DNA from: a virus
Taxonomy: Duplodnaviria; Heunggongvirae; Uroviricota; Caudoviricetes
DNA length: 64,000 nucleotides
IMG/VR virus record: IMGVR_UViG_3300037487_000968
Location: 77,280-141,279 of that record
Reading direction: 5' to 3' (one strand)
The notes under the pieces are model-generated. The model was not told the DNA's origin. It saw nothing but the letters and a program-made list of their open reading frames with translations, and did no database searches. Both the position numbers and the translations under genes were made by a program. Positions 14,094-63,264 of this stretch are shown piece after piece. Position 1 is the first letter of the stretch. The number at the start of each line of letters is the position of its first letter.

Positions 14094-14149
14094 AACTAAC
14101 TCCTTTGTGTGTTGCGATGTGTTTATTATAGCGTAAAGGAACTGTGCTG

Positions 14150-14302
14150 TCAACTGTTTTTAATGTAAAGTTGATAGTCCTCTGTGGAGATGTAGGGACC
14201 AATGAAGCTACCCGCGAGGTTGTACCATGTGAGTGTTACTCTCACATTCAGCATAACTTGCTTATGCTCTGCGGGTGTGAGGAGGATTTGATTTGCTTCC
14301 AT
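14150..14302 (-). CDS. Leaderless 50-aa hypothetical protein
   Basis: TTGACA-17-TATACT-5nt-ATG; its TGA lies inside the next TTGACA. Confidence 0.55.
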   Translation of the reverse strand: MEANQILLTPAEHKQVMLNVRVTLTWYNLAGSFIGPYISTEDYQLYIKNS

Positions 14303-14342
14303 ACTGTAGTATAATACAGTTGGAAGCAGTTGTCAACTGTTA

Positions 14343-14759
14343 TTACCTGACCATGCAGCCAGTAAATACATAAGTCTCGACATAACGCCCTGACTGGTCC
14401 TGATAGTAACTGCGAGAGTAAGTTGCGTCTGTGCCTTGCGGGCAGACAGGCTGCTGCTGTGGGGGTGTTGCGGGCACTACAACGACTGTAGCTGGCTCGC
14501 TAGGGCGTGTCGCACCGTAGACTATTGCCCCAGTGATTAGTGCTGGCACGAACCAACCTAAGCCTGGGCCGCCTCTGTAGCCGCCGTTGTCATGTCTGTA
14601 GTTAGCGGCAGGCCAGTGTCCTGGGCCGCCTCTGTAGCCGCCGTTGTCATGTCTGTAGTTAGCGGCAGGCCAGTGTCCTGGGCGGTACTGCTGATTGTGC
14701 TGAGCGTGTGCGCTTACTAGGGCAAGGCCTAGTATAATTGCTGTTAGAAACTTTTTCAT
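14343..14759 (-). CDS. Secreted Gly/Pro-rich protein with a duplicated 19-aa repeat
   Basis: Signal peptide MKKFLTAIILGLALVSAHA; PGHWPAANYRHDNGGYRGG x2; TM-like segment. Confidence 0.75.
   Translation of the reverse strand: MKKFLTAIILGLALVSAHAQHNQQYRPGHWPAANYRHDNGGYRGGPGHWPAANYRHDNGGYRGGPGLGWFVPALITGAIVYGATRPSEPATVVVVPATPPQQQPVCPQGTDATYSRSYYQDQSGRYVETYVFTGCMVR
14563..14682. repeat. 57-bp intragenic tandem repeat (2 copies plus partial)
   Basis: Identical units starting at 14563 and 14620. Confidence 0.9.
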
Positions 14760-14818
14760 TTGGTACTCCTGTGTGCTATGTATTTATTATAACAGAAAGA
14801 AGAGCTGCTGTCAAGTAG

Positions 14819-14986
14819 TTACAATGCAAAAGTAACTACCTCGTCACTGGGCAGTTTAATGTCTGCAGTTGCCTGCAAGAGCATAGACTTGTAGCGGTAC
14901 ATAAACACTTTGTTGCTGTTTGCCTCTGCAAGCGGAACAAAGACGCCATTAACTAAGTAGAGGCTGTTGCGTTTTAGTGTGTACAT
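14819..14986 (-). CDS. Hypothetical protein (55 aa, MYTLKRNS)
   Basis: Manual ORF after cassette leader. Confidence 0.55.
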   Translation of the reverse strand: MYTLKRNSLYLVNGVFVPLAEANSNKVFMYRYKSMLLQATADIKLPSDEVVTFAL

Positions 14987-15241
14987 GCTTGTTCCTTTGT
15001 GCTATGTGTTTATTATAGCACAAAGTGAAACTAAACGCAAGCTTTATTTACATTGTTACATCTTGTTACATCTTAGCAGCCGCGCATAGGCAGTGTCAGG
15101 TCTTAAGTTTGTGCATGAGGCTTTGTGCCGCCCATCATCTATTACGCAGAACCTCGGGATCTTAAGTATACCTTGTTTAGGTAAAACGCATAATTGCGAG
15201 ACTTTAGCAATTGTGCTGATCTCTTTGGCATTTGTTTAGAA

Positions 15242-15488
15242 CCTCGGAGTTATGCATTTTAACCTTAACTGACCTGCAGTAGGACTGCGAGGCTCTATGT
15301 AAAAAGACTTGACTTGGCAGGCGATTTTTTGTATAATAAGGCATAGGAGGGAGAGCTCTGACCTCAAAACTTTTGGCCTCGGAAAAAGTTTGGCACTAAG
15401 CTTAGATTGTGTAGAGGCTTTGCACGCTAATGCCTATGTCTTTGCTGAGCCTCGGAGTTATGCATTTTAACCTTAACTGACCTGCAGT
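15242..15488. repeat. 39-bp perfect direct repeat (15242-15280, 15450-15488)
   Basis: cctcggagttatgcattttaaccttaactgacctgcagt x2. Confidence 0.9.
15309..15360 (+). promoter_or_regulatory. Orphan sigma70 promoter, no downstream ORF
   Basis: TTGACT-17-TATAAT then GGAGGGAGAGCTCTGAC. Confidence 0.65.
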
Positions 15489-15561
15489 GGGTTTGCGAGG
15501 CTTTGCTGTTAATGTCTTTTAAGATCTGTTTTATAAGACGTTTTGCACGCAGCCTCGGATG

Positions 15562-15756
15562 TTTGTGTTTGATCAGTGCACAGAATCTACTAAGTGCGAG
15601 GTTCTGGCATTTTAGGGCTTGTAAGTTGTTGATTTATAAGGCTTTTTTTAACTAAAACAAATAAGTTTTTGTTTTTGTAGATTCTTAAAATTTAGTCTTT
15701 TACTGATCTCTAAGAGCCTCGGAGTTTATAGATTCTGTGCACTGATCAAACACAAA
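15562..15756. repeat. 28-bp perfect inverted repeat (15562-15589 / 15729-15756)
   Basis: tttgtgtttgatcagtgcacagaatcta and its reverse complement, each flanked by GCCTCG. Confidence 0.9.
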
Positions 15757-15779
15757 AACGCGAGGCACAGCAAAAGTTA

Positions 15780-15845
15780 TTGACAAGACCTGCGATCTGC
15801 CTTATAATTTTTACATAGCACCATTTGGAGGGGAAGCTCTGACTT
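15780..15845 (+). promoter_or_regulatory. Second orphan sigma70 promoter
   Basis: TTGACA-17-TATAAT then GGAGGGGAAGCTCTGAC, similar to the 15309 transcript start. Confidence 0.65.
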
Positions 15846-16105
15846 GTTCCCAAAAATCGTCTCGGCCGGCACGCGCTTGCACAAGAGCAATGTGTGCGAG
15901 ACTGCACGCAAACATCTTAAAGACAGGCGGCTAACAGATTCTGTTATTGCTAGAGCCTCGGGTAGGCAAGTGCAGGTTGATAAAACCTAAACCGAGGCTC
16001 TGCTTAGGTCTGTGTTTGATCTATAGATCTTAGACGACAATTAAGACGTAGTCTCGGGCTTTAGCACGCAACTACCTTTAGTGTGCGAGAGTTTGTGGCC
16101 ACAAT

Positions 16106-16128
16106 AAAAGGGGCCTAAGCCCCTTTTT
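16106..16128. terminator. Bidirectional intrinsic terminator
   Basis: AAAAGGGGC-CTAA-GCCCCTTTTT. Confidence 0.8.
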
Positions 16129-16142
16129 GCCCCTGCCGGGCC

Positions 16143-19135
16143 CTAGTCGTTGATGATGAGCAGCCCGTGCCCCGCGAGTGCAGGGTTGATGCTAAGGCTG
16201 TTGCCCGTCGGGGCATAGCGCCAGCCCATGATGTCTTCCCCTGAGATATCTTTGTCGGCGTGCGTAAAGACAAAGGCGTAGCCGTCGACAGTGACGTATT
16301 GCCCAGGGCTACTGATCCTCAGGTCGCTCGCTTCAGCAACATAGGTTTTAGTTGCCAGGTTGTAGCTAAACTGCGATTCTTTGAAGTTCATTTGCTGCGC
16401 TCCTTGTTGCGATATGCTATTATAGCGCAACTGGAGCGATGTGTCAATAGTTAAAACTCACCCTCGTACGGATCAGGAGACGCCTTGAGCCCAGGTGCGA
16501 GACACTCACATGCCTGCTCGCACACCCGCAGCAGTCGTGCTCATGTCTGCAATTGCTACCGCCCAGTGTGTCTCGCAGCGCCTGGATCAGCTGCTGCATG
16601 TTGACACCAGAGGGCGCCCTGGCGTACTGCACAAACGCCCCACCGTCGTCGTAGTCTTTAGGCGCCTCGGTTTGCCTTGCTGGTGTCATATTGACTGAGC
16701 CCAGGTACACATCCTTGTCCAGGTAACGCCAGCCATCGGCATAACCATGCGTTAGGCGTTTGAATGCGTAGACCTTTTCCATTGTTGACTCCTTGTTGCG
16801 ATGTATGTATTATAACGCAATTGGAAGTCTTTGTCAAGCTTCTGTAAGCTGTTTTAGGCTGCGCTTTGCCAGGAGGATGTTCTCCATAAAAGCAGAGCGG
16901 AGCAGGCTAGCTGCCTCGTTGCGAGTATGGCCGTTGTTTAGGAGTTGCTTCAAGAAGGGAGTGCCCAGGATGGCAACCTCTGCTTGCATCAGCGGCGTAG
17001 GAGGTTTTCCTTTGAGGTGCGCTACCGCTGTGCTAAACTGCATCAGGATGAAAGCGTCTGTGTCTTGTAAGTGTTGTGCCATTTGCTGCTCCTATGTTGC
17101 TATGTATTTATTATAGCACCATAGGAAGCTGCTGTCAATAGCTATAGGAATATTGTTGTACTTCAAAAACTTTGTCGAGCTTTTTTTGCACGTCTGGCTT
17201 AGTGACGCTGTAAGTCTCTGATGCGTTAGAGTGCTTAACGAGCGTTGCAACTGCGGCATCGATGCTTTGCTGCGTAAGCATTGACACAGGATTGAGTGTC
17301 TCGTAGTACGTTGCTGTTGCTTGCACAAGTTTGCTCTCGAAGCCTGCTAGTAAGATGTACTGCACTGCTGCCTGAGAGCCTTGCAATTTACGTGCAATAA
17401 TGCGTGTAAACAAAGTACCGTTTTTCATATTACTCCTTGTTGCGATGTGTTTATTATACTGCTAAGGAACGGTACTGTCAACAACTATTTTCATCTTTGC
17501 GTGTCAAACCTGTCTCGGTTTTTCCCGCAAGAACCTGCCGCAGGAAGGCGAGACAGGCACTACACTTAAAAATGTAAACCTAAATCCTCGCATAGACTTC
17601 TGAGTCTGACCGGGCAGTCTATCAGAGATCCTAGCACTGGCTCTCTATCTTGTCGCACAGGGCATTGAACTGTAGCCAGGTCAAAGGCTTGAAGTTGTTG
17701 TGTGAGCGGACATAGTGCGCTTGATAAGCATTGTAGCGTGGCATATTGACTCCCTGTAAAGATATTATCATAAGCATCTGCATTGCTGCAACGCTTATGG
17801 AAGTACCCTTCACATCGCTTTTCCATTGTTCAACCACCGGCCCCGAAATGCGATACAACTAACCGGAGAATAACAAACAATGTCTTGTTTGCTTTGCTAT
17901 GTGTTTATTATAACGTAGTTGGAGCCTGCTGTCAAGCCTGAACGTTCCAAGCCCGCGCCGTTTCAATCTTTCGCTTCAAGTTGATAGCGTCAATCGCAGC
18001 CTCTTTCAGGAGATGAAACGATTTGTCAGATACCTCGAGGTTGTCCATGTTGCGCTTCAACTCGGCGTAAACCAACTCTACCATGTTCTCGACAGTCTTG
18101 AGAGATTCGTTGTTCATGTATGTATTATAACAGGTTTGGGTATTATTGTCAAGCCAAAGCTATCATTAAATCAGCAGCCTCCGAGACTTTCATGTTGCTG
18201 TACTCGTCGCCGCATGTCTCTGCCAGTTTCAATGCCTTCGCAGGAACACGCATGCCGCACGCCTTCATAACCTTCAGTTCGGCCAGCAACTGTTTGACAA
18301 ACTCGCTCATTTAACGACTCCTTGTTGTTGAGTGTTTATTATAGCGCAATTGGAACAGTGCAGTCAAGCACTATTATGCGTAATTAACTTCCTCGCACTC
18401 GACCTTTACGTCTAGTTCCGGAAACTCTGCGAGTATTTCAGCCTTTTGTGCGTCTGCTAACGCTTGTGAGCTGTGCATGCCGCACATTTCCCACTGATTC
18501 TCGTCGTCGCCGAAGCCCAGGCCGTACACTATGTAAACTTTTTGCATTGCTGCTCCTTGTTGCGATGTATGTATTATAGCGCAAAGGAACAGTGCAGTCA
18601 AGCACTGTTACACTTAATACGCTTCTAATTCGTGTATGCAATAACGTGCGCCGAGCTGACGCAATGCAGCACGACAAGGTTCAGGCGAGATACTCCAAAA
18701 CGTGCTGTAGATCTCATCGCGTAAGTCTTGTGAGATCTCGTCTTCAAACAGTGCATAGATCTGATCAAAGCTGAGGCCTTTACAAGCATTTGCAAAGTCA
18801 CGCATACTGTGTATGTTACGTGCTACGACTGCAAGTGTTTTCTTCATACGCTACTCCTTTGTTGCTATGTGTTTATTATAGCAACAAAGAAAGCTGCTGT
18901 CAACAACTTTAGTCTACTAATAGTCGCCGTCTTCTGCTCTCTGTGCTAAAAACACAATGTCGTAGTTAGCACCCTTCGCTGCTACTAGCGTCTCTACTAG
19001 CGCACCCGCAATGTCATTGCTAACATCGTTGTCATCCTCGTACCAATCGCTGTCACTAGCATTTTCAACTGAGAACATAACATCGTCTGCTGCTTTGCGT
19101 AAAGCTGCTGCAAGTGCTTCATACTTTGCCTTCAT
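16143..19135 (-). other. Single-gene cassettes encoding hypothetical proteins: 16143-16391, 16444-16782, 16834-17082, 17135-17428, 17631-17744, 17932-18117, 18149-18310, 18374-18547, 18614-18847, 18917-19135
   Basis: Most have their own promoter and SD (17932-18117 is leaderless); starts corrected to the ATG after the leader. Confidence 0.7.
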
Positions 19136-19480
19136 ACGCTACTCCTTTGTTGCTATGTATGTATTATAGCGCAAAAGGAACTGTGTGTCAACAACTATTT
19201 AGAGCCTCGCAGGTCTTAATCTTAGACACATAAGAGCTCAAGCGAGGCTACGCCCTCCTCGGGTAAGGTTCAGAGGACCTTAGAATCTACTATGCGAGAA
19301 GGTTCAGATGTAACAAGATGTAACAGGCGAAAAAAGACTTGACAGGAACGCCCCAATCGCATACAATAACGACATGGACAGCAAACATCGCAACAAACAA
19401 AAATGCAAAAGCTTGCAAATAGTTGTTGACGAAGCTTGCATCCAGTGTTATAATATGTTTTTCAACACAAGGAGTTAGTA

Positions 19481-19984
19481 ATGGACAAAGGTATCCGCCC
19501 CGCTTGCAACGCAAAGTTCGCTGAACTGTTGCCCACACGTGCCGAAGTCGGCAACACGGCTTTCCGCAAGAACGTTATGTTCTACGTGATGGAAGAGTTC
19601 GGCATCACGCTTGCTAGTGCTGCAACGCACTACAATCACGCTTTCCAAGCTGTGAAGGCTGCTAACCCGGAACTTGTTGCAGGCTTGGGCCGTGCAGACG
19701 ACAAGAAGGGCGGCCGCAAGCCGAAGGCGACTGTTGTTGCTGAAGCTGTTGCTGTGCTGCTTGGCACGCCGGAAGGTGCTGCGCCCGAAGCTGCTACGCT
19801 GCTTTCGGAAGGCGTCAAGGAGAACACGTCGACGCTGACGGTTACAGTTAACCCGGCAGCGACGTTTACCGTCCGCAAGAAGTCCGACGGCACTGTTGTT
19901 GCCGAAGGGCTGTCGCAGGAAGCTGCTGACACGCTGGTTGCAAAGGCCAAGGCTGCAAAGAAAGCGGCACTGGAAATTGCTTAA
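19481..19984 (+). CDS. Putative DNA-binding protein, 'SAATHYN' family copy 1
   Basis: FRK.VM...GITLASAATHYN...GLGR.DDKKGGRKPK; own promoter and terminator; only credible + strand gene in the region. Confidence 0.75.
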   Translation: MDKGIRPACNAKFAELLPTRAEVGNTAFRKNVMFYVMEEFGITLASAATHYNHAFQAVKAANPELVAGLGRADDKKGGRKPKATVVAEAVAVLLGTPEGAAPEAATLLSEGVKENTSTLTVTVNPAATFTVRKKSDGTVVAEGLSQEAADTLVAKAKAAKKAALEIA

Positions 19985-19989
19985 GGGGT

Positions 19990-20014
19990 TAGGGGCTACG
20001 GCCCCTACTCTTTT
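19990..20014 (+). terminator. Intrinsic terminator
   Basis: TAGGGGC-TACG-GCCCCTA-CTCTTTT. Confidence 0.75.
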
Positions 20015-20073
20015 GGCCGCGCATAGGCAGTGTCAGGTCGTAGACCGAACCACCCGAGGATGCTACAAACGGT

Positions 20074-20207
20074 TCTCGGATAGGCAGTGTCAGACCAATA
20101 TTAGCTAGTGCGAGGAGGGGCATGGCAGGGTCTCGGATAGGCAGTGTCAGACCAATATTAGCTAGTGCGAGGAGGGGCATGGCAGGGTCTCGGATAGGCA
20201 GTGTCAG
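20074..20207. repeat. 57-bp non-coding tandem repeat (about 2.3 copies)
   Basis: Units start at 20074, 20131 and 20188 (tctcggataggcagtgtcag...). Confidence 0.9.
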
Positions 20208-20271
20208 GACGTGGGCCGTAGCTGCAAGGGTCTGCACAACTTGCATAGCTTAGTTAAAGTCAAAAGATAAG

Positions 20272-20460
20272 CTAGGTAGGACATTTTAGTTTCCTACCTA
20301 GCTTTCCTAACCACTCATCCGGTTCGTAGTGACCTTGATAGAGTTGTATATCAAACTGAATATACCCGGACCGTGCGCGAATTGTGTGTAGTGATCTAAC
20401 CCAGATCCCATCGTTGCCGGGGTCATCAGTGTGCGGCATATACATGTAGTGATCCGTCAT
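20272..20460 (-). CDS. Hypothetical protein
   Basis: GGGG SD-like sequence before ATG. Confidence 0.45.
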   Translation of the reverse strand: MTDHYMYMPHTDDPGNDGIWVRSLHTIRARSGYIQFDIQLYQGHYEPDEWLGKLGRKLKCPT

Positions 20461-20592
20461 GGTCCCCGTATGTCGGGACTTCGAAACCCGAAATTCGTTG
20501 CAAAAATTGAGACTATAGCCCCTACCGGTAACGCGGTGATCTAGCTATTGCTGCGTGAGCCTGATTCTCGCAAATCAGGAGTCTCTAAACTT

Positions 20593-20678
20593 TGGTGGAG
20601 ATGGATGGATTTGAACCACCGTGCTTTTTAGGGGCCAGATTTACAGTCTGGTGCAATCAACCGCTCTGCCACATCTCC
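20593..20678 (-). tRNA. tRNA-Tyr (GTA)
   Basis: GGAGATG acceptor, CCAGA-CTGTAAA-TCTGG anticodon arm, long variable arm, GGTTCAAATCC, encoded CCA. Confidence 0.93.
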
Positions 20679-20682
20679 AAAA

Positions 20683-20788
20683 TCATATCTAAACGCACTC
20701 GCATCTCCCTTTGGGGGCGCGTGTTCACCAACTTTTTATCCTGCGTCCAGGAAGTTGTGTGCCCATTTACACCAGCGTTTAGATATGA
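20683..20788 (-). ncRNA. Candidate cloverleaf-like structured RNA closed by a 14-bp stem
   Basis: TCATATCTAAACGC / GCGTTTAGATATGA enclosing three hairpins. Confidence 0.5.
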
Positions 20789-20911
20789 CCCCATGCGTCG
20801 GGACTTCTTACAGACAGGATATACAATACTAATCTCGTAACTAGCGCAGACATTACTTATGTAGTTGCTAGATTAAGATTAGCCTTTTTTTGGCTAATTT
20901 AAGCAGCTACT

Positions 20912-23129
20912 TTACTGATGTACAGTCCACTCATCGGACTCAAGCATATAGCTGTACGCTACGTCTTCGGGCAACTCGCTGCCATCTTGCATCACGCCTG
21001 TTGACACAATCTCTTCTGCTATCGTGCGGGCAGAGTCTTCACTGTCTGCTTCCACTTCGATGCTCTGAACCCAGACTTCCTTAACTCGTACAGTAAACTT
21101 AGCCATATGTTACTCCTATGTGTTGCTTGCTGTGCATGTATTATAGCGTCTATAGGAGCAAAGGTCTATAGACCTCTAGGTGCTTAGGCGGGAAATCTGT
21201 GCCAGAACCTGTCGCAAATTCCAAAATTAAAAAACCAAATCTGGTCGCGAAAGTTATTTTGGAAACCTAGGGTCGTAATTTCGGCCTGAACACTCACACG
21301 CATAGGTATCTAACATCTCGACAGCACTGGCCTCCGCTTTAGTGTTCCTCGGATCCTTGGCCCACTCCTTTGTCTTCTTGTCGAGACTTTTATTCATTGT
21401 GTAAGCACACCAAGCAACGAACAATGCCAGCATTGCTTGACCCCACATAGCAGTAGCGACACCGATGACAGCAAGCACAAGAAAGACACCAATTATTGTA
21501 TTCATTTTATATCAGAGTGGAAAGAAGTACCTTTAAGTGCTGAAGCAAGCAATATAATTAATGCACAGCCTAGCACAAAGACATTAACAACAGGGATTAC
21601 AATAGCAAGCAACAGTGTAGAGACAAACCTAACTGTAAGCGGGTTATGCTCTTCAACTACCTCTACCCAGCAAACAAGACCTGCCAACACAGTCGCGAGA
21701 ATCGCTGCTACAATATACACGATCCAGAAAGTGCTCATGTCTCTAACCGATTAAGGAACTTGTTGAGTGCATCAACAGAGACGCTGCCATAGATCTTTGC
21801 GTAGTTGATGCTATCCAGTGAGTACTCAACCGCTGCGGCAATAGCTGTAGCCTCGTCGCGGGGAACACCCGCAGACATCATGTTGTCTACGAGTGCTGTT
21901 ATTCTGGGATCAGTTTGTGTGCTCATAGCGTATTATACTATCTATGAGCACACTTGTCTACCTTATGCCCGCAAAGCATTCACACGCACATAAGGGCCGC
22001 CGATGCTAACACGCCCGGGCAGATAAGCGTCAGTGTCGGTAACACGAACTTGATTGTTGAAACCTTTGGCACGCAGATTCCTGTTAGCCCGCTCAGCAAT
22101 CTCGCCGGCGTAGGTTGTTTGGTATGTCACAACACGCATAGGTTTGTCGGGACGGGACCAATTCACCGGGTCTGTCCATGTGCGACCTTTGCGGCACTTT
22201 AGTTCGTCAAACGCTGCATTGATTGCTGCACGAACTTCCAATGTGTTGCCTGCTTTCATTTGCTGTCCTTTGTTTGTTGCGATGTATGTATTATAACGCA
22301 GTAGGAACCAGTTGTCAAGCAATAATTGCCAGCCTCTCAGGGAACTTCATTGGCTGCTTGCTGTCGTTGAGGTACACCTTGTCGCCATCGAGCTTTGTAA
22401 CGACCTGCACCTCGATGTAAGCACTGAGGCGTGCAAAGGCAAAGGCACGAGCAACATTCTGCCCTACCTTGAACTTCTTTCCAAGTACATCCTTAGCCAT
22501 TTTGATCTCCTTCAATAATTTCTTTCATTGCCTTACGCTCAGCAACTTCAGCTGCCAACTCCAGGTCAGTGTAGTCATTATAACCACGGAACCCGAACTC
22601 AAGGTTCCATGCAACAACGGTCCAGTCGTTGTCCAACATATCCGCTTTGATGTACTCGATGTCCCCATCAACCAGCTGTTTGATGATTGCTTCACGATCC
22701 ATGTTACGCTCCTTATTAAAAGCTGTCAAAGACCCACACACCGTCTTCCTTGCGTGTAGGCAGGTCGCCACAGAATTCCCAGTTGCCTGCACCTTCCACC
22801 TTCAAATTGGAGTAGGCCATGCCGTCTTCAATTTTGGTAATCACACCGTATTCGTAATTGACTTCTTCGTCGCCCACAGTATCAGCGCAGCAGCGGTCGC
22901 CTACCTGTGGGGTGTCGCCCGCTTCGTTGCCTTCTTCACCCTCGGGTTCTGTGTTGTCCATCAACGTGCAGAGCAGGTTGTTGTAATCACCCGCCATGCA
23001 CTTGAAGATCACATCCGAGATCTCATCTGCTGTCCAGCCCTGCTTACGCGCAGCAGTCTTGAATGCACCCATAAGGGAAAACGCATTGCCGTCAATGCCT
23101 ACGAGCGTCAGTTTAACTTTGTTTGCCAT
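20912..23129 (-). other. Hypothetical CDSs: 20912-21106, 21254-21505 (TM), 21502-21738 (TM), 21735-21926, 21963-22259, 22315-22515, 22493-22702, 22716-23129
   Basis: Cassette promoters, SDs and coupling; starts corrected. Confidence 0.7.
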
Positions 23130-23191
23130 ACAGTCCTTTGTTGCTATGAGTGTATTATAGCAGGATGTTTCCACCCTGTCTATATATTTGT

Positions 23192-24034
23192 TTACTGTAC
23201 TGGAACACCCACCTTGGGAGCATTGGCAAGATAGGTCGCACGTGCCAGCTGCCGTGTGTAACCGTTAGCGGCCATCATCGCTGTGATGATCTGCTCGTAA
23301 CCGTGTCCTGCACGATGCCCTGTGAGCATAATGTTGCGACTGATGGCTGCTTTGCTTGTCCCTACTATAGACGAACCAACAGTCGAAACAAACGGTGCAG
23401 GGCGCTGTACAGGAACAACTACGGGCGCCGGGTAAGGCACACCGATGATGGTAGCCGGCTCCACTTCCTTTGTCACTGCAACCTTCTTGACTATGGGTGC
23501 AGCAAACGAACGCCCACCTGCACCAACAATGCTGTAAGCACATTGCTGGTTAACAGTGCCCAAGCCCTTACGATAGGACAGTGTACGCCCCAACTGAACG
23601 TGCTGGTGACGCCTATCATTCAAACGCACCTTGTGCCCACGATCGGTTGTGTATTCGTACGTGGTGCCCTTACCGTACACAACATCCATGTCGTGTGTGC
23701 GGTCTCCAGTGCCACCCAATGCCCTGCAAACACGGGCCCAACCGTAGTCGTGATTGCGGCCCAATTCGGGCTTCAGGAAGCAAACGATGTGTGCAATTTC
23801 GTGCGGGACAACAACATCAACCATTTCGTCTGTTTCACGCAACAGCATATCGTAGTTGAAACGCATATGATAGACACGGGCAAAAACGCTGCCACGAGCA
23901 CAGGCCATACCACCAACACGACCCTTCAAGTCGAAGCGAATAGCAACCTTGCTCAAGTCCACTCCGTACAGTTCCTTGGCCTTTTCAAACACTGCTTTAC
24001 ATTTTGTAAGCACTTGCGCTTGTGGGGTTGTCAT
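23192..24034 (-). CDS. SprT-like zinc metalloprotease with basic C-terminal domain
   Basis: PHEIAH (HExxH) followed by HDYGWARVC; GGMA and RFN motifs. Confidence 0.8.
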   Translation of the reverse strand: MTTPQAQVLTKCKAVFEKAKELYGVDLSKVAIRFDLKGRVGGMACARGSVFARVYHMRFNYDMLLRETDEMVDVVVPHEIAHIVCFLKPELGRNHDYGWARVCRALGGTGDRTHDMDVVYGKGTTYEYTTDRGHKVRLNDRRHQHVQLGRTLSYRKGLGTVNQQCAYSIVGAGGRSFAAPIVKKVAVTKEVEPATIIGVPYPAPVVVPVQRPAPFVSTVGSSIVGTSKAAISRNIMLTGHRAGHGYEQIITAMMAANGYTRQLARATYLANAPKVGVPVQ

Positions 24035-24092
24035 TTTGTGTGACCTTTGTGTGTTGCGATGTATGTATTATAAGGGAGATGGAACCGATTGT

Positions 24093-27000
24093 CTACCTGA
24101 AGTTGAAATTTCTTATCCACTCAAAACGTGTAGTAGCTGGAACCCACTTAACCATCAGTGTGGTAGGGACAGTGTTAGGCTTGTCAACAACCTCGTCTGT
24201 GTCGATCAAGAGCCAATTTTTGTCTTGCGAGAACTGTACATCACGTGCAAACTTAACAATGCGTACAATTTTGTTTCCCAGCTTTGCTATAACTGCCATA
24301 GTCACCTCGGGAGTTGAATCAGGCCCGATCAAAGGCCACTTGCGAGACTAGCCGAACAGGGCGATAGCAATGCAGATCGCTGATAACCAAGGATGCCCGG
24401 TCATCAATAGGAAGATGCTTGCTACTATAAGCCAAAACGTCATTATGCTGTCTCCTTTTCCCACGCTACATCAGCTGCCGCACCGTATGCCACATAAGCA
24501 TCAGAGCCGTATGCCGGGCGTGTCTCGCACCAATAATCTAAGCAGATCATGCCCGCTGCACGAACCTTTGCTGCAAGTCTATCGCAGTCTGCCTGTGCTT
24601 GCTCGCGAATGTCTTTGTATCCCACAGCCCATTCGTTCTCCCACTTCTGCACACCAGGGAACTCATTGCCGTGAACCCAGCGATTGCCGTATGCATCAGT
24701 AACATAGACGCAGTAGACTTCGCCGATGAAGGACTCGCCGTCTTCTGTGTAGCCAAAGTCCTTAAGATAAGAACTTGTACTAACGTCACATCCTGCTAGA
24801 TCCATTGTATGCTCCTTGCTGCTATGTATTTATTATAACAGCAAGGAACCACTTTGTCTACCGTTAGTTAAACACTTTGCCGTCTACACGAACTTCTGTG
24901 ATGCTGTCTGCTTTGAAGCTGCGGATGATAACCTTGTCTTCCAGCCCGCCTTGTGCGCCTTCTTCTTTGTCGTCAAGCCCAACGATTTCGCTCTTCGCAA
25001 TGGGTGCCCCATCCAGGAAGTATTGTACAGCACCGGGCTTCAGGAAGATGACTTCCACGTAGTAGGCAGTAGCACCGTCTTTGAAATGCTCGATGATTGG
25101 CATATTTGGAACGCGAGTGCCCCAGGCACGCTCGCCGAGCACAAAGCTTGTCGGGTCTTTGCCTTCAGCTACAAGACGCCTGCCCACCATTGCAGCGTAG
25201 CCGTTAACTGTCTTGTTCTGGAAGCACATAACGCTTGCACCCGTCATGCGTTTCGTAACGCGACCCTGCTGGGCATTGCTCTTGCCGCCCTTCAACTTGG
25301 GCTCTGTCAGAGTGTCGATGCCCACAAACGAAGCACCGTTTACGTTTTGGAACGCTGCTATGAGTTGAGTGTGCTTCATTTTGTGCCCTTTGTGTGTTGC
25401 GATGTATGTATTATACGGCTTCTGGAACCGTATGTCAACAACTATTTGCCGGGCGGGATGCCCCACAGGGAGAACCTTCTGTAGCCTCGTGGCTTGCAGA
25501 TCCGCAAGTCAGTACATTGCGAGACCTTGGCGTGCAGGTGTGCAGCGGCATAGTCGTAGTCGAAGTACTTCTCCTCGCGGTTAATGTCTTTGTCCAGTGG
25601 GTCCAGTGCGTAGACTGTGCCCAGCATACACTCCCAGATCAGCCTGCGGTGCTTCAGGGTGATGTTAGCCTTCTTCACACCACCCGCAAAGGGATGACGA
25701 ACCTGCCCGCTGATGGCAGTAATAAGTGGGTTAAGCATTTGCTCTCCTTGTTGCGATGTATGTATTATAACGCAAATGGAACCACCCGTCAACAACTATT
25801 TACGCAGTGACGATAACCTTCGGAGTCAGCGACTTCGCGATCTCCCTCGCAGCAGCCTTCAGTGCCTCCGGTGCGGGTTCGCGGTGTCCCCAGCCCATGC
25901 GATCCTTCAACAAGTGACGAATGAATGCTTCGTTGGGCACAGCCACCACGTCTCGCGGCTTGCGGCCCTTGGCAGCAACAAACACAGCACGGCGATCGTC
26001 AACCGTGACATTGGAACGTTGGGCAGTTGCGAATTTGTTCATATCGTTTCCTTGTTGATTGTTTGTTGCGATGAGTATATTGTAGCAGGGAGTTTCCTCC
26101 CTGTCTACCTTTTAAATCCGGTCTGCCATGATCTCTTGCAGGATCTGCTTGCTCTTGCCGGGCCACATCTTCTGTGCAGCAGCCAGCACTTTGGGGTCGT
26201 CGAGCAGGCCACCTGCCATCTCGTACGCCATTGAGTCATCAATAGCTTCACCACCCATGTCTGCCTTCATGTCGTTGCCAGCATCCTTGAGCATCTTAAG
26301 CAAGTCCATCTCTACTCCTTGTGTGTTGCAAAAATGTTATTGTAGCAGGGAGTTTCCTCCCTGTCTACCTTTACTTACAGGTTCTTCCAGTGATCCGGGC
26401 CTGTCTGGACAGTGTACTTGTACACCGGGTCACCATCGTGCCCATTCACACGCTCACCACGAGCAGCCTTGGCCGCGGCCTTGGATGCATAGAACTCACC
26501 GTTGACTTTGAAAAGACGCTTCATATTTACTCTCCACGTTGTTGTAAAAGTGTATTATAGCAGGGAGTTTCCTCCCTGTCTACCGTTTAGTCCACCAGAC
26601 GGACAATAAAACTCTTGCCGCCCATGCGATCCGTTGCGCGGATAAACATGCCATAGAGGTAGCGGCCCTGGAACTGACGCTTCAGTTGACGCTCCAACTC
26701 CTGTTGTGCAAACAGCGGAGCATGGAAGATGTGCTCGCCATTCCACAGCTTCAGGCGGCGCGTACCGTCCTTAGCCTTGTCATTGAACACAGCGGGCGCC
26801 CAGGGATTAGCTTGGCGGAAGCCAGCATCCTTAAATGCTTGGCGAAGCTTCTTTGTATCAGACATTACTGTCTCCTTTGTTGCGATGCGTGTATTATAGC
26901 AGGGAGTTGCCTCCCTGTCTACCACTTTATGCCAGTACGCAGCGAACAGTGACACCCGGCAGGCCGCCACTATAGCCGAAGCCCGACGGGTAATTCAAGC

Positions 27001-27767: not shown

Positions 27768-27788
27768 ATAGACTCCTGTGTAGTTAAT

Positions 27789-28016
27789 TTACCAACGATT
27801 GTCACGCTCTTCTGCGCCAATAGCATCGCAGATATCCTTTGCTTCCTTCAGGCCCAGCCCATACTGCTGGCGGATGAACTTGATTGCAAGGACCTTTTGA
27901 CCAGCACCACCGTTGCTGGGATTGAAGAGATTCCATACCAAGTCGAACTCAGCGACAGTCACTTCCTGAGTTGCGTAATTGTGTACCGGATACTTAACAG
28001 TCTTCATCTGTGCCAT
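27789..28016 (-). CDS. Ribosomal protein bL12 C-terminal-domain-like protein
   Basis: KVLAIKFIRQQYGLGLKEAKDICD matches K(V/I).VIK.VR..TGLGLKEAK. Confidence 0.65.
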   Translation of the reverse strand: MAQMKTVKYPVHNYATQEVTVAEFDLVWNLFNPSNGGAGQKVLAIKFIRQQYGLGLKEAKDICDAIGAEERDNRW

Positions 28017-40937: not shown

Positions 40938-40990
40938 GAACTCAGATTGTCAAGCAGTTTCCAGAACTCAGATTGTCAAGCAGTTTCCAG
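40938..40990. repeat. 26-bp tandem duplication spanning a stop codon and the -35 box
   Basis: gaactcagattgtcaagcagtttcca x2. Confidence 0.9.
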
Positions 40991-41491: not shown

Positions 41492-41550
41492 TTGCGTTCC
41501 TTGTTGCGATGTGTGTATTATAACAGGATGTTACCACCCTGTCAATACAT

Positions 41551-42021: not shown

Positions 42022-42091
42022 GATTGACTCCTTTGTTGCGATGTGTGTATTATAAGGGAAAATTCCCTACCTGTCAATGACTATTTGATAA

Positions 42092-50219: not shown

Positions 50220-50849
50220 TTAAACGAAAAGAAAGTTTTTAGATAGAAACTTGAGCACTTTGTTGTAGCCGTGCTCTTTAATTAGTTCCCCGATCAACTT
50301 GTCAGCTTCAGGAGCTTCGGCGCACGTGGTCAATCGGTCTGCATCGATGCACATTTCAATGGCACATTCGTTGTCGTCGACCATGCAATCTGAACCAATA
50401 TAGTTCCACACAAGCCACATCGGGTGCCTTAACTGATCTACTACTGCTTTGTCTAACTGCATATCTACTCCTTGTTGCGATGTGACTATTATAGCAACAA
50501 GGAGCGAGTCTGTCAACTACTTTGTTTCATATTCCTTGATAAGCATTTTCAGCCACTTGTGGCGATGCGCTTGCATCCGGTCAAAGGTAAGATCTGTCGA
50601 AGGGATACCTTTCTTCAGAAGCCACGACTCCAATGTTTCACAACCTTCCAGTCGCTTGTGGATTGCAGTCCTGGCCCGCATCGCCGCATCTGTGTACATG
50701 AATCTTCCTTTACCTGGATTGCCGTCCTCAATAGCATGGCAGATGAATTCATTCATAAACCAGCGACTGGTATAATCTTTGCCACTACCTTTTGCCAGCC
50801 GTTCAACAGCCTTACGCATCGCCTTGGCAATTTTCAAACGTGAAGTCAT
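50220..50849 (-). other. Hypothetical cassette CDSs 50220-50462 and 50517-50849
   Basis: Starts corrected; 50517 resembles 39333 (ends HKWLKMLIKEY vs KAWMRSLIEEF). Confidence 0.68.
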
Positions 50850-55448: not shown

Positions 55449-56204
55449 TTATTTAGTTGTAAAATTACAACAACCTTCGTTGGGATGGCATATGAACACA
55501 TCTATTCCATTCTTCTTGGCGTTATACATTGCACAATCAGCCTTGGTCATTAATGTCTTTACATCATTACCGGATTCTGGATAATCAACCTTGCCAATAC
55601 TAAGGCCAATGCTCAATGATTGCCCATTGATATCAATTGGTTCCTTTATCTTTTCTATCATTTGCTGGATTACTGTTTCATGTGAAAATACATTAGCATA
55701 AGGTAGGAGAATAACAAATTCATCGCCACCTAATCGAATTACCATATCATTGGCACCTACTGATTCTACAATTCGTTTTCCCACAACTCTTAATACTTCA
55801 TCGCCAGCATCGTGCCCATATGTATCGTTTACTTCTTTGAATTTGCATAAGTCAATTAATAGTAATTGGAATTTTGTTTTCTTTTTAATCAGTTTATTAA
55901 TTCTATCAGCGAATGCTGCTCGATTATATAATCCGGTTAAGGGATCAAAAGTTGCCTTATGTGTTATCTTACCAACTACTGCGAAATGATAAAGTATTGG
56001 AACAACTACAATTGTGGCAATAAAAAAATCAATAACACAATATAGATAAAATGGTAATAGTAATGTGTGAGAATATGCGTGTAATAGATACAGAAGTGAT
56101 ACCGCTCCATACATAGCAAAACTTATAACGAAGAAAGTCAGTAACGTGACATTCTTAAATAAAGGGGATCTAATGGAGATATAATTCATATTCGTATTTA
56201 TCAC
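55449..56204 (-). CDS. Membrane-anchored diguanylate cyclase (GGDEF)
   Basis: Two TM helices, DPLTGLYNR, D...FK.VND.YGH..GD, RLGGDEF, AD.AMY.AK. Confidence 0.9.
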   Translation of the reverse strand: MINTNMNYISIRSPLFKNVTLLTFFVISFAMYGAVSLLYLLHAYSHTLLLPFYLYCVIDFFIATIVVVPILYHFAVVGKITHKATFDPLTGLYNRAAFADRINKLIKKKTKFQLLLIDLCKFKEVNDTYGHDAGDEVLRVVGKRIVESVGANDMVIRLGGDEFVILLPYANVFSHETVIQQMIEKIKEPIDINGQSLSIGLSIGKVDYPESGNDVKTLMTKADCAMYNAKKNGIDVFICHPNEGCCNFTTK

Positions 56205-57822: not shown

Positions 57823-57824
57823 AC

Positions 57825-58298: not shown

Positions 58299-59500
58299 GG
58301 TTCAATCTCCTCTGTCATATCAGCTTCTTCCAGCTGATACCATTCACCATCGACAATCTTTAATTTGATATAATTGCCTACCATTCCGCCACGCACATAA
58401 TCACGGCCGCCATCGATATAGGTGGACCCATCTGTTGATGTGCGATAGTCGTGTCGATAGCGACTATAGATAACTTCGCCATCGCGGGCGATTACACCAT
58501 CGATGATACCTTCCACAGCACTTGCGCCGCTTGTGATGTAAAGTGTGCCGCCCTGGATAATCAATGCGAAGTAGTTGGAGTAACCTTCGACCGGCGGCGT
58601 TTCCTGGTAATACACATCGCCGCAGGAATCTCCAGTCCACTGGCCATCCCGTGTCTTCATAGCAAGTTGTCCAACCCACTTGGCGTTGTACTTGGCTTCA
58701 ACCTTCTCAATAATACATTGAGCATCAGCACGTCCAGTATTTACAATAATCTTTTTCATTTCATTGCCCTTATGCGATTAATTACTTCATTGGCTTCGGC
58801 AAGATCGCTGTATTCAACAGCGAGCTCATCTATTTCTTCCTTCTTCTCATACCACTCGACATATGGTTGAGTCCATTGGCGAAATGCTTCATATTTGTCT
58901 TTACTATTTGGATCCATAGCGTTCTCCTGTTACTGCTATTTTACAGCAGACCTTTTAAGATAGCAATAGATAATGCTTGTTCTGCTTCTTGTATTGTATC
59001 GTATCGCCATGCAAATATCCACCAACTACCTGTTTGACCGCGGCAGCCGAAGAGATTGTATAATTTATCAATCCATTCGGGATTGATATCTATGCCTTTA
59101 GTAAAGATATTAACTATGAATTCGTTGTTCCTACCTTTTATACCACGCCAGGATTGAATACTATAATTCCTGCCTTTTTTTATTGTTTTTGTGCGGCGTC
59201 TCACAGAATTTCCAATACCTTCAAACTATTGGCTGTGTACCAAATACCGCCCTGACTTTCTGGACGAATGTGTTTTGTGCAGCCTTTAACTTCAACCTTG
59301 CACCAAACACGGCCTTTTTTAGACAAGTGTGGAGCAAGTGGTTCAGCGCAACAGTGCCAGCCTGGGCGAACCTTATAGCCTTTGGTCGGATGGAATTCCG
59401 CCATATACTTCTTTCCAATCTCCACACGCAGGCGAGCATTGATAAAGAGTGGGCCTAACGAACCATCCTTGCGTTGTTTGAATAGCTTATATGCAATCAT
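58295..59500 (-). other. Hypothetical CDSs 58295-58759, 58941-59204, 59201-59500
   Basis: ORF track; motifs SRYRHDY..DGG.DY and RPGWHC. Confidence 0.68.
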
Positions 59501-59554
59501 GTGTGCCTATGTTCTGTACATTATAACAAGATAGGCAAACAGTGTCAATGGATT

Positions 59555-60052: not shown

Positions 60053-60074
60053 ATCTTAACTTGCATTGGCCTGC

Positions 60075-60494
60075 TTAGGCAGTTGCGTCAGCAGCAACCG
60101 GTTCTGCAATAGCAGCAACCACGTCAGCAGCAGGTGCTTCAACCTTCGGGCTATTCTTGCTGCCAGCTGGGCGGCCGCGCTTGCCAGTAGATGCAACCTT
60201 GACCTTTTTAGGGTCACGGCCGAGCGTAACGGTGCCAGTAGCTTCAGCATCCTTTTTGGCCGCATTGTACATCGTTGCAGCAGATGCAGTGGACACGCCC
60301 AGATCGGTTTGGATACCAGTCAATACCGCTGCCCGGAATTCCTTGTTCGAAGCGAACAGGCCTTGGGTGCGTTCAACCATCTTGGCTTGGAAGATGGCCA
60401 GTGCAAGGGACTTCTTGGAAGGTGCCTTCGGAACTGCCGGCGTGGCGGGTGCAGTGGCAACAGTGGTTTCAGTAGCAGTAGCGTTCTTAGTCAT
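60075..60494 (-). CDS. 'SAATHYN' family copy 4, with AT-hook-like KRGRP
   Basis: EFRAAV...GVSTASAATMYN...LGRDPKK...KRGRP. Confidence 0.72.
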   Translation of the reverse strand: MTKNATATETTVATAPATPAVPKAPSKKSLALAIFQAKMVERTQGLFASNKEFRAAVLTGIQTDLGVSTASAATMYNAAKKDAEATGTVTLGRDPKKVKVASTGKRGRPAGSKNSPKVEAPAADVVAAIAEPVAADATA

Positions 60495-60590
60495 AAAATA
60501 CTCCAGTTTGTGTGTTGTGTGTAAACAAAGACGAATGAACTATTTCCTCCGTCTTGCCGCTATTGTAAGACAATTATTGGCTGAAGTCAA

Positions 60591-61097
60591 TCATCCAGTA
60601 ATTATTACAAAGTCTGTATCATCGGTAGAGCGGACCCACCGTGAAGACTTGTGATTCTGATCGCAACCAATTGGCGAAACAAATAGCCAAGGGCCGTGTT
60701 TACCCGGTGCAAAAAGCACAACATCGGTTTCGGCCAATACCGTCCACCGATCACCATGCTCGCGCACTCGATTCTTTCCCTTTTGAGAAAGACCTTTGAG
60801 TTGAATTTGTTTACCAAGTAGTGACACTTTAATATCCTATACTGCTAATGCTTCAGGAGCATCAACTTCGTCGTCATCTTCCAGGCCGGCCACCAATGCG
60901 TCTACATCGAGTTCAGCATCGACAGCGCGGGTCTTACGATTACCATTTACGGTAGAAACAGAGACAGGGCGATACTGCCACAGCGGACACGAATTCACGC
61001 TGGTGCAGGCTTCTACTTGTTCTCTCCAAGTTCCTGGCGATTTGTGATCATAGATACACATTTTGCACATATCATTGATAGCTTTGGTGCGACTCAT
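60591..61097 (-). other. Hypothetical CDSs 60591-60827 and 60837-61097 (CKMC...C...CPLW zinc-binding)
   Basis: Promoter and SD present; second start corrected. Confidence 0.68.
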
Positions 61098-61310
61098 TTG
61101 TAACTCCTTGTTGCGATAATGTATTATATAACAGAATTTACTTCTTGTCAACTAAAATACGATATAAGGATTTTGAAAGCTTCCTTGCCCTATTTGTTCG
61201 TAGTGGCCTTGCAGGATACGCCGAAGGTCCAACCACTGCCATAACAAAAAATCTCATCTTTCGGTTGGTGCCAACACGCTTAACTAAACGTCGAGCAGTG
61301 GGATTTCTTT

Positions 61311-61682
61311 TCATTTAGCACGCCGCAATTTTTCAGCAAGGACAAGTTGCAGAATTTCGCTGGCAAGATCATCCTCACCTTGCTTTAAGGCTTCGGCACC
61401 CAATTCGCGTAAAGATTGCAACAATCGCTGGACAGAATCACCTACACTGATGCCATTGTTACGCAAGATACGAAATTGATTTTCAATCTCGTTATCGGGA
61501 TTACCATAGGATATGAAATTGGTTCTATGGATATCAAAGTGCTGCTCTCCCTGCCGTTCGGAGGCATCTTTTGCCTCTTTTAAGCCGAGCCCGGTAAGCA
61601 TCCGGATCGCTTTGATAACTTCGACACGTTGGGTCTGTGCAGCGAGCAGCCCAATACACATCGAGAATGAACCGTTACTCAT
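61311..61682 (-). CDS. Second bL12 C-terminal-domain-like protein
   Basis: RVEVIKAIRMLTGLGLKEAKDASE. Confidence 0.7.
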   Translation of the reverse strand: MSNGSFSMCIGLLAAQTQRVEVIKAIRMLTGLGLKEAKDASERQGEQHFDIHRTNFISYGNPDNEIENQFRILRNNGISVGDSVQRLLQSLRELGAEALKQGEDDLASEILQLVLAEKLRRAK

Positions 61683-63199
61683 TTAACTACGCCGAGTATG
61701 AGGAAGAACGGCCAATCCACCGCACACCACCGCAGCCAACCAAGTCCAGAAACTAAAAGCAATCTGCGGAATAAATGCGCCTACAGGAGCACCAATCATT
61801 GATGCAGCAATAAGAGTATTCACACCCCAAATAAAACACCAAGGCCCCACTAAGAGCAGAAATGCAATGAAGAGCCCAGCAAAAATCAGCTTAACTAAGT
61901 TTGACATAATTTTCCTTATTTAGATTTCAAACGAACGGGTTGATACAAGTCCCAGCCAATGATATAGACAGGAACTACAATTGTTTCACAGAGGATAATA
62001 CCCCAAATAACCGAGCTGGCACTGATTTCGTACAGCACATTTGGATCCTTCTGCGATTCCATATTAGCAATACCGTAGACATCGTAATGCTTACCTTCAA
62101 TAACTTTATCATTGCCGCAAGCAGACAACAATGCAGCGGCACCAATGATACATGCGATAAGACGTGTTTTCATTTTATTTCCTTTACCTTTACTTTGCTG
62201 ACACGATAACCCATCCTTGCTGCTAAATCCTTCAGCAAGGCAAGATTGACATCGCCCACTTGTTGTTCGCGATGCCAGTGCGTATATGCAACAGGTCGGC
62301 CACCATATCCATCCAACACAGCTAATGTCTGTGTATCGGCGTGAACTTGCTCGACAATCTGGCCATACTGAAATTCTCTGCGGCCATCGGTTGCAGAAGC
62401 CATCCAAATCTTGCGACCCAGTTCAGGATCCTTCTCCCAAACATGAACAAGATCGTTTGACAATACAACTACGGTGCGAAAGCCCATGTTAGCCAACCCT
62501 TCCTACATAGTCTGCTCTCATGTACCAATCCGGCACATAGTCTTTATCATTGAATTTGGCATTATAAGCCCGGGCATATTCTTTGGCTTCGACATCATTG
62601 TCAAAATAGATTGTTTCATCAATCTTGGAACCCCATCCACGTTCACTCTCAATAATATCTACGCGGAATGCTGTTTTAAGTTCAACCCTTGCCATATTAT
62701 TTCCTTAGTGTGTAATCGAAACGCGAATCTTTGTAACTGTATCAGTGCCGCGGAAACGATCCATTGGATCACCACCCACTTCTTCGATGACATAATTAAC
62801 CAACACCTTTTCAACAGGAACTTCGAGATCCTTTGCAATTAGCAGCTTGATATCATCTGTAGAGAATTCGTACGATGATACTTTTGATTTCAATATACCT
62901 GCCATTACCTACTCCTTGTTGCGATGTCTTTATTATAGCACCAAAGGAAGATGATGTCAACCTTTGGCAACAATGTCGTACTGGTCGAAAAATTCGGTTG
63001 CAGGGATATCTTGAGTGACAATTTTGTTCTTGCCCTGATACGAATCAGCAAAGCGAACCCGCATCCCGCCGGAATTCAAATTCAGTTGCACCACTTCAAC
63101 TTCGCGTTCCTCAGAAATTTTGAAGCTAGAAGTAGGGTCCGTGTTGTCGTAGTTTTGGTTGTAAACACGAACAGTAGCAATAACAATAGGGAGAGACAT
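61683..63199 (-). other. Hypothetical CDSs: 61683-61907 (TM), 61916-62173 (lipoprotein, LSAC), 62170-62496, 62489-62695, 62705-62905, 62957-63199
   Basis: Coupled ORFs and cassette promoters. Confidence 0.68.
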
Positions 63200-63264
63200 A
63201 TCCGTTCCTTGTTGCGATGTCTATATTATAGCACAAGATAGCGTAAGGTCAACAGGATTTACTC

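Follow-up and report, generated by a model that had tools for sequence, protein, structure and literature searches.

How might a tightly packed row of strong early promoters, mostly with no terminator between one small gene and the next, keep each gene from being expressed by the cassette upstream of it? The question is raised by a 64,000-nt stretch of viral DNA (hereafter the window; positions 77,280 to 141,279 of the IMG/VR virus record IMGVR_UViG_3300037487_000968), whose minus strand carries 50 σ-70 promoter and leader units between 13770 and 62960, with just 18 others elsewhere on that strand:

13717-62960, minus strand: array of 50 cassettes, each with a σ-70-consensus promoter and a conserved leader (ACAYACATMGCAACA..AGGAG..ATG)

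The record as a whole has 210,450 bp, at a completeness of approximately 55% (CheckV), and encodes a T4-type major capsid protein (gp23; PF07068, 262 bits) along with a portal protein, tail sheath, baseplate hub, gp46-like nuclease and gp43-like polymerase. Near-identical DNA was found in freshwater and sediment metagenomes, and the source is an uncultured T4-like freshwater phage. Comparison of the window genes with 50,697 phage records by megablast and tblastn returned no match.

Units were defined as T[TA]GAC[AT]-N16-18-TA[TC]A[AC]T, with an extended -10 element (TG at spacer positions 15-16). Each begins, at its -35 box, 0-10 nt past the stop codon of the preceding small open reading frame (ORF), and 44 of the 50 are followed either by a Shine-Dalgarno sequence (SD) and ATG or by a leaderless ATG. 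The leader after most units is strongly conserved and A/C-rich, reading ACAYACATMGCAACA(A/CACA)AGGAG and then ATG, and no A/T bias was seen in the 30 nt upstream of the -35 box of the 50 units. The genes behind the units are small, and in a PHROG search of those behind the bridging hairpins described below the matches were confined to families without known function, and the functions of these genes therefore do not hint at why certain cassettes would be masked. A terminator scan yielded convincing canonical terminators upstream of four units alone (46427, 44898, 44398 and 44012), all four lacking an embedded hairpin; four are too few for testing whether terminators and embedded hairpins exclude each other. 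With the two promoter boxes (-35 and -10) and the leader all fixed, free sequence in the cassette is confined to the 17-nt spacer.

It is this spacer that is predicted to supply one or both arms of a stable stem-loop in 23 of the 50 cassettes, pairing with its own bases or with CGC and GGAG, which are all that the leader has in G/C-rich sequence. Comparable units, the promoter-early stem-loops (PeSLs), were defined in phages RB49 and phi1, where they populate hyperplastic regions and bring about the shuffling of cassettes (Arbiol et al. 2010, PMC2839356). We consider it somewhat probable that the window holds about 50 PeSL-type cassettes in a hyperplastic early region, and that the 23 hairpins insulate them from read-through, those contained within the spacer by attenuation and those that bridge spacer and leader by masking the SD or the start codon.

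Folding of every unit gave bridging hairpins in 12 of the 50, with energies of -11.7 to -27.6 kcal/mol and the -10 box in the loop of each one. The 3' arm comprises the SD (GGAG or AGG) in nine units and a leaderless AUG in two, and has no ORF behind it in one:

59500-59541, minus strand: bridging hairpin of unit 59548; TGCCTAT pairs with ATAGGCA (weak SD), -10 box at 59520-59525, ORF 59201-59500
50465-50508, minus strand: bridging hairpin of unit 50516; CTCCTTGTTGC/GCAACAAGGAG, a perfect 12-bp stem that includes GGAG, -10 box (TATAAT) at 50488-50493
32515-32562, minus strand: bridging hairpin of unit 32572; CCTATTG/CAATAGG over an SD-like AGG and the start region
24807-24852, minus strand: bridging hairpin of unit 24860; TTCCTTGCTG/CAGCAAGGAG, 17 bp with 3 G-U pairs, -23.9 kcal/mol, TATAAT in the loop
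21917-21953, minus strand: bridging hairpin of unit 21960; perfect 12-bp stem, the leaderless ATG (ORF 21735-21926) lying 5 nt past the -10 box within the 3' arm
18845-18899, minus strand: bridging hairpin of unit 18903; TTTCTTTGTTGCTA/TAGCAACAAAGGAG, TATAAT in the loop
18550-18592, minus strand: bridging hairpin of unit 18601
17085-17132, minus strand: bridging hairpin of unit 17138; the leader variant CATAGGAG is matched by CCTATG in the spacer, a two-sided change
16787-16829, minus strand: bridging hairpin of unit 16837
16398-16438, minus strand: bridging hairpin of unit 16447
14294-14328, minus strand: bridging hairpin of unit 14336; the leaderless ATG (ORF 14150-14302) lies 5 nt past the -10 box within the 3' arm
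13717-13767, minus strand: bridging hairpin of unit 13770, the strongest of all (-27.6 kcal/mol), with neither SD nor ORF behind it

Three of these (50516, 18903 and 24860) had been quoted in a preliminary description of this DNA, and they are exactly as given there. Pairing is preserved through changes on both sides of the stem in three units (CCTATG/CATAGG in 17138, TTGCTG/CAGCAA in 24860 and CCTATTG/CAATAGG in 32572), and five stems (21960, 14336, 13770, 59548 and 32572) are of wholly unrelated sequence. Unit 13770, which lies just beyond the range of the preliminary description, may be where a non-coding RNA starts or where the array stops. Consensus promoters with an ATG 5-7 nt past the -10 box and no SD make candidate leaderless mRNAs at 21926 and 14302 of the window (minus strand), with further candidate starts at genome positions 152112, 180979 and 185330; the start of ORF 21735-21926, ATGAGCACACAA, is kept in a relative.

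To what extent such pairing exceeds chance was assessed by scoring each spacer against its own leader with RNAduplex, the controls being spacers swapped among units and shuffled spacers. The mean for the 50 units was -9.29 kcal/mol (median -7.4), against -7.7 kcal/mol (median -7.2) for swapped spacers, none of 10,000 permutations being as low (z-score -4.6), and -6.66 kcal/mol for shuffled ones (z -8.2). With medians that are practically equal, the effect must be borne by a subset of units: duplexes of -16 kcal/mol or lower were found in 9/50 units, compared with 2.1% of swapped and 0.6% of shuffled spacers, and the own leader was the best partner among all 50 for eight spacers, where one would be expected. 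The 38 non-bridging units show no pairing excess (own -6.51, shuffled -6.13, z -1.05; swapped -7.01 kcal/mol). The preliminary description had noted spacers complementary to their own leader and inferred that read-through transcripts hide each downstream ribosome-binding site; the advantage over shuffled spacers stands for the array overall but is absent from those 38 units, and the predicted geometry applies to about 11 of the 50 rather than to each cassette, given 27 units with no hairpin above chance and 11 whose hairpin lies within the spacer. SD masking is thus, at the most, one of two routes by which promoter-embedded hairpins would act on read-through RNA. As the stems lie in differing registers across units, the analysis relied on permutation tests and orthologue comparisons in place of a column-wise covariation model. 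Duplex energies of sense and antisense strands favor the gene strand in 8 of the 12 bridging stems against a background of 26%, a result to which we give little weight, since the A/C-rich leader shifts the background toward the antisense side and a near-perfect stem is symmetric.

The expected consequence for translation was modeled as the energy needed to open the segment from SD to AUG, in read-through RNA and in RNA with a presumed start 7 nt past the -10 box. As the 5' arm is the spacer and the -10 box lies in the loop, a transcript from the cassette's own promoter, with that presumed start, does not contain the 5' arm. The mean opening cost was 6.35 kcal/mol for read-through RNA, 2.59 for the own transcript and 4.83 for read-through RNA with a shuffled spacer. 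It rose more than 3 kcal/mol above the shuffled control in eight units (59548, 50516, 24860, 21960, 18903, 17138, 16837 and 14336), among them 50516 (10.0 vs 3.1 kcal/mol), 24860 (16.3 vs 3.8) and 17138 (16.1 vs 7.8), and in these eight, opening takes 7-14 kcal/mol more in the read-through RNA than in the own transcript; outside them the read-through RNA is no more closed than the shuffled-spacer control. On these folding models the SD or AUG is predicted to be base-paired in the longer transcript of 11 units. Parts of the window are contained, as assembled contigs, in four metatranscriptome runs, for which DNA carry-over is possible; contigs such as 18494-18992, 24334-25100 and 26530-27311 span promoter units, although transcript ends, strand and read-through are not readable from them. 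Several end at 26107 and 26367, which are identical repeated promoters, and these ends are therefore assembly breaks. The array contains one tRNA-Tyr (GTA) gene (20593-20678, minus strand), which was the sole Rfam match at gathering thresholds; several RNA contigs have loose ends at approximately 20500-20800. A search with the RegB profile PF10715 gave no match, its control being likewise unmatched.

In 11 further units, a class not noted in the preliminary description, the hairpin lies entirely inside the spacer, mostly with a GNRA loop, and never touches the SD, making use of the CA of the -35 box and the TG of the extended -10 element:

49128-49145, minus strand: spacer-internal hairpin of unit 49149; CAAGGAA-GTGA-TTCCTTG
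42055-42068, minus strand: spacer-internal hairpin of unit 42077
41523-41542, minus strand: spacer-internal hairpin of unit 41545; GTAA loop, a G-U pair here being A-U in the relative L161
39669-39688, minus strand: spacer-internal hairpin of unit 39693; the orthologue has another stem with a UUCG loop
27539-27552, minus strand: spacer-internal hairpin of unit 27558
26900-26917, minus strand: spacer-internal hairpin of unit 26921; CAGGGAG-GCAA-CTCCCTG, the orthologue having an unrelated stem (CTGCGGA..TCCGCAG)
26561-26578, minus strand: spacer-internal hairpin of unit 26582; GAAA loop, GGAA in a relative
26346-26363, minus strand: spacer-internal hairpin of unit 26367, whose 29-nt promoter is identical to those of units 26107 and 26582
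26086-26103, minus strand: spacer-internal hairpin of unit 26107
25413-25433, minus strand: spacer-internal hairpin of unit 25438
23161-23178, minus strand: spacer-internal hairpin of unit 23182; CAGGGTG-GAAA-CATCCTG, a G-U pair here being A-U in the relative L029

Hairpins of this class at -6 kcal/mol or lower were present in 26% of the units in the window (2.3% after shuffling, z -9.9), in 18% of 205 distinct units from relatives (2.1% after shuffling, z -16.5), and in 18% of the 67 units of the three closest relatives (again 2.1% after shuffling). Among 26 distinct four-base loops read on the gene strand, 14 are GNRA and one is UUCG, and the complementary forms are absent (0, against an expectation of about 3% for each class); a bias limited to the gene strand identifies the spacer-internal hairpins as RNA structures of that strand. 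One of them, CAGGGAG-GAAA-CTCCCTG, is present in three identical copies (units 26107, 26367 and 26582), the 29-nt promoter TAGACA-GGGAGGAAACTCCCTGC-TA[CT]AAT standing three times within 500 bp (26079-26107, 26339-26367 and 26554-26582). These repeats are assembly breakpoints and likely recombination substrates.

The leader motif was found in at least 118 IMG/VR stretches, and among orthologous cassettes the hairpin class may be retained, lost or exchanged. In the orthologue of 59548 (L124/L160) the gene is approximately 100% identical while the cassette is wholly different, and a stem again covers the SD (ATCTCCTA/TAGGAGAT); behind a different spacer, the orthologue of 16447 (gene 69% identical) has a perfect 12-bp anti-SD stem; that of 24860 retains a weaker bridging stem. 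The bridging hairpin over the leaderless AUG of 21960 is replaced by a spacer-internal one in L115/L162, and unit 27255, which has no hairpin in the window, has a spacer-internal GCAA hairpin in a relative. Spacer-internal stems are swapped for unrelated ones in the orthologues of 26921, 26367 and 39693, one of them with a UUCG loop, and those of 23182 and 41545 have A-U where the window has G-U. In the three closest relatives bridging is modestly enriched (5/67 units at -14 kcal/mol or lower, against 1.3% of shuffles). Judged from these sequence comparisons, the promoter hairpin is a maintained but fluid feature whose two classes are interchangeable. The cassettes themselves are shuffled, one promoter standing before differing genes and one gene behind differing promoters, among relatives 99% identical in the adjacent coding sequence. 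Ahead of the -35 region of unit 40953 (40953-41010, minus strand) there is a near-exact tandem copy of about 27 nt (cttgacaatctgagttctggaaactgc), suggestive of slippage or recombination within a cassette.

The mechanism that we propose builds on this arrangement, in which a near-consensus σ-70 promoter, an A/C-rich leader with AGGAG and a small gene form a unit placed a few bases past the previous stop codon. Because the cassette's own transcript would start downstream of the spacer, the stem-loops should be confined to RNA entering from the cassette upstream; such read-through, the formation of the hairpins in vivo and their action are what we infer. Spacer-internal hairpins, with their GNRA or UUCG loops followed by UAUAAU, would attenuate read-through as reported for PeSL211/210 of RB49, and it is on the analogy with that published assay that attenuation is suggested here. 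Bridging hairpins, devoid of a U-tract and thus unlikely to terminate transcription, would lock the SD or start codon in a helix, leaving read-through RNA poorly translated and the promoter-proximal transcript open, on the principle known from T4 (e, soc, 49 and I-TevI); should they form, the ribosome site is inevitably masked, which we take to be their most likely effect. Insulation would then be partly transcriptional and would extend to 23 of the 50 cassettes, 11 of them by SD or AUG masking.

Several observations weigh against this insulation model. More than half of the units (27/50) have no hairpin above the level of shuffled and swapped controls, which makes insulation, should it be real, optional. 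Bridging complementarity stands at chance level across the 205 related units (own -6.62, swapped -6.52, shuffled -6.37 kcal/mol), and the bridging stems of 50516 and 32572 have each been lost in one relative with flanks 94-99% identical, the stem of 32572 being lost in L036/L161 and retained in L125/L159. The 8 nt after the hairpin contain on average 2.7 U in the spacer-internal and 1.5 in the bridging class, a proper U-tract in neither, and hence the case for termination by spacer hairpins depends on a single reporter assay, published for another phage. A leaderless AUG within read-through RNA would be poorly translated anyway, and masking therefore leaves the strong hairpins of 21960 and 14336 unexplained; the strong stem of unit 13770, with no ORF behind it, weakens the masking interpretation further.

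Could the spacer have been selected simply as an anti-SD sequence, each gene being translated only from its own promoter and spacers with the motif YTCC (Y, T or C) representing weaker versions of the same device? We regard this as possible but doubtful. The 3' arms that include GGAG or AGG in nine bridging units and AUG in two agree with it, as do the two-sided changes that keep the SD paired and the SD-covering stems rebuilt from other sequence in the orthologues of 59548 and 16447. The motif is certainly abundant, being found in 28/50 spacers against 7.9 expected (1000 shuffles, maximum 16), and the earlier remark that about 20 more spacers keep (T/C)TCC was right as a count. In those units, however, it does not raise pairing above the controls, and the 38 non-bridging units at large show no excess either; in eight units YTCC is the 3' arm of a spacer-internal hairpin, which would hide the anti-SD rather than the SD; and the 205 related units show no YTCC enrichment. 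Moreover, since CGC and GGAG are the sole G/C-rich segments of the leader, a stable stem cannot form with it unless the SD is included. In units that lack the conserved leader (21960, 14336, 13770 and those of RB49) the 3' arm lies directly past the -10 box and not on the SD, which suggests that the selected feature is the read-through RNA hairpin as such, and the orthologue of 21960 switches to a spacer-internal hairpin altogether.

It is improbable, in our judgment, that the hairpins serve the upstream gene instead, as 3'-end stabilizers or processing barriers against 3' exonucleases, or as coupling devices melted by ribosomes, with the overlap of the SD being incidental. Such a role would suit the position of both classes, which start 5-25 nt past the upstream stop codon, the RNA-type loops, and the interchangeability of the classes among orthologues. 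It would also suit the four units that stand behind a canonical terminator and have no embedded hairpin, but these are too few for statistics, and between the window and L125 it is with the downstream gene that promoter and hairpin move, the upstream gene being different.

The preliminary description had offered single-stranded DNA or cruciform hairpins of the attC kind as its alternative, and we consider it very unlikely that DNA-level structures of this sort, or PeSL mini-circles as has been speculated, serve here as recombination sites. In favor of it, cassettes are shuffled among nearly identical relatives, and the stem-loop has been speculated to be the target of a recombination protein (PMC2839356). 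Nevertheless, the GNRA and UUCG bias is found on one strand only (14 + 1 of 26 loops vs 0), G-U pairs are tolerated in the stems, and stem sequences are unconserved and so provide no protein recognition site. A tyrosine recombinase or integron integrase (PF00589) was not matched in the 210-kb record, which is about 55% complete, although controls were matched; and homologous recombination between conserved promoters and leaders requires no hairpin. That the complementarity has no function, being the decaying remnant of one ancestral palindromic cassette amplified in this lineage, is just as hard to credit, for while spacers at 14-19 kb are visibly akin (GCA..TTCC..TGCGC) and bridging is enriched only in this phage and its closest relatives and lost in some orthologues, the five unrelated stem sequences, the pair-preserving changes on both arms and the stems rebuilt in orthologues all speak against it.

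Insulation of cassettes by read-through hairpins, if confirmed, would account for the head-to-tail packing of dozens of strong promoters with no terminators, and would provide small, portable insulators that occupy the same 29 bp as the promoter. PeSLs have been proposed as gene-shuffling units in T4-like phages and their stem-loops have hardly been studied; what is new here is that the stem-loops are gene-strand RNA elements, as tetraloop bias and G-U exchanges show, and are widespread in uncultured relatives, and that one subclass would reuse the T4 gene e trick with promoters of the same class. It is rather unlikely, though worth stating, that in a large clade of freshwater T4-like phages the spacer of a strong early promoter is a programmable RNA element (attenuator or anti-SD) by which a shuffled cassette is expressed only from its own promoter, regardless of what stands upstream; were this true, it would amount to an insulation rule built into the cassettes, under which genes can be shuffled safely as modules.

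Other features of the window lie apart from the hairpins. Composition shifts sharply between 1-12000 and 14000-28000, from a G+C content of 33-35% in a plus-strand biosynthetic cluster to as much as 51% in the cassette array at 22-28 kb, the genome standing at 40%. The early array also encodes a GGDEF diguanylate cyclase domain (E 1e-44). The two plus-strand promoters listed below lie in a 1.1-kb stretch without a long minus-strand ORF and could belong to paired small RNA genes, and the biosynthetic cluster could be a sugar or base modification pathway:

1916-7118, plus strand: cluster encoding a GatZ/KbaZ-like protein, a B12-binding radical-SAM enzyme (727 aa) and a carbamoyltransferase (490 aa)
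15309-15400, plus strand: consensus promoter followed by GGAGGGAGAGCTCTGAC
15780-15870, plus strand: consensus promoter followed by GGAGGGGAAGCTCTGAC, similar to GGAGGGAGAGCTCTGAC
55449-56204, minus strand: GGDEF diguanylate cyclase domain

How, then, does the array compare with known systems? Like integron attC sites, its hairpins are imperfect inverted repeats bounding small, shuffled gene cassettes, but each window cassette has its own promoter, the loop bias is that of gene-strand RNA and the stem sequence varies freely. Intrinsic terminators share the short G/C-rich hairpin, often with a GNRA or UUCG tetraloop, directly past a gene, and differ in the U-tract that the embedded hairpins of the window lack. 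A closer likeness is found in T4, in which the SD or AUG of e, soc, 49 and I-TevI is trapped by pairing in read-through RNA while a late promoter inside the structure yields an open transcript (PMC3014915), Aeh1 mobE belonging to the same group (PMC3014915). There, too, the SD or AUG lies in a helix whose 5' arm is upstream of or across a promoter, and transcripts from that promoter are without this arm and open to translation. The internal promoter of T4 is late (gp55), however, and the read-through RNA early or middle, the result being delayed expression, whereas in the window the upstream and internal promoters are of the same σ-70 early type, so that the effect would be insulation and not timing; furthermore, the window has about 11 occurrences in one array, and its 5' arm is the spacer that separates the -35 box from the -10 box.

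The closest known relatives are the PeSLs of T4-type phages, described for RB49/phi1, T4/PST and KVP40/nt-1 (PMC2839356; Comeau et al. 2014, PMC4122927), with promoter and attenuator activity in vivo published for RB49/phi1 only (PMC2839356); there, the stem-loop of PeSL211/210 lowers downstream lacZ as strongly as rrnB T1 (PMC2839356). The RB49 genome (AY343333; L127/L128), scanned in the same way, has both spacer-internal hairpins and hairpins with the -10 box in the loop. PeSL211/210 itself proved to be of the spacer-internal kind (GGGGATC..GATCCCC, then TATACT), and examples of the other are ATGGGAGTAG-TAAAAT-ACTCCCAT and AAGGGAGATTCTC-TATAAT-GGGAGTCTCCCTT followed by a T-run, their 3' arm being the first transcribed bases and not the SD. 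The RB49 leader begins ACACACATC, similar to that of the window cassettes. The bridging hairpins of RB49 have a GGGAG-like 5' arm and, as 3' arm, the ACTCCC with which the cassette's own transcript opens, so that this transcript starts with a sequence resembling an anti-SD. PeSLs and window cassettes agree in the upstream stop codon, the near-perfect TTGACA-N17-TATAAT, the SD and start codon of a small gene that follow and, for part of the window cassettes, a stem-loop in the spacer or overlapping the -10 box; both are clustered in a hyperplastic T4-like region, among function-unknown genes and with cassettes exchanged between close relatives. The window units differ in having no AT-rich block upstream of the -35 box, in stems that are not of the GGGG..CCCC type, and in a stem-loop present in 23 of the 50 cassettes (11 spacer-internal, 12 bridging) and absent from 27, a frequency far above that of shuffles. 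They differ also in that the 3' arm is the SD itself in nine units, an arrangement absent from the PeSL papers and from the RB49 examples examined. The array is, therefore, a variant of known systems, in which PeSL cassettes are combined with predicted ribosome-site masking of the T4 gene e type, using promoters of the same class.

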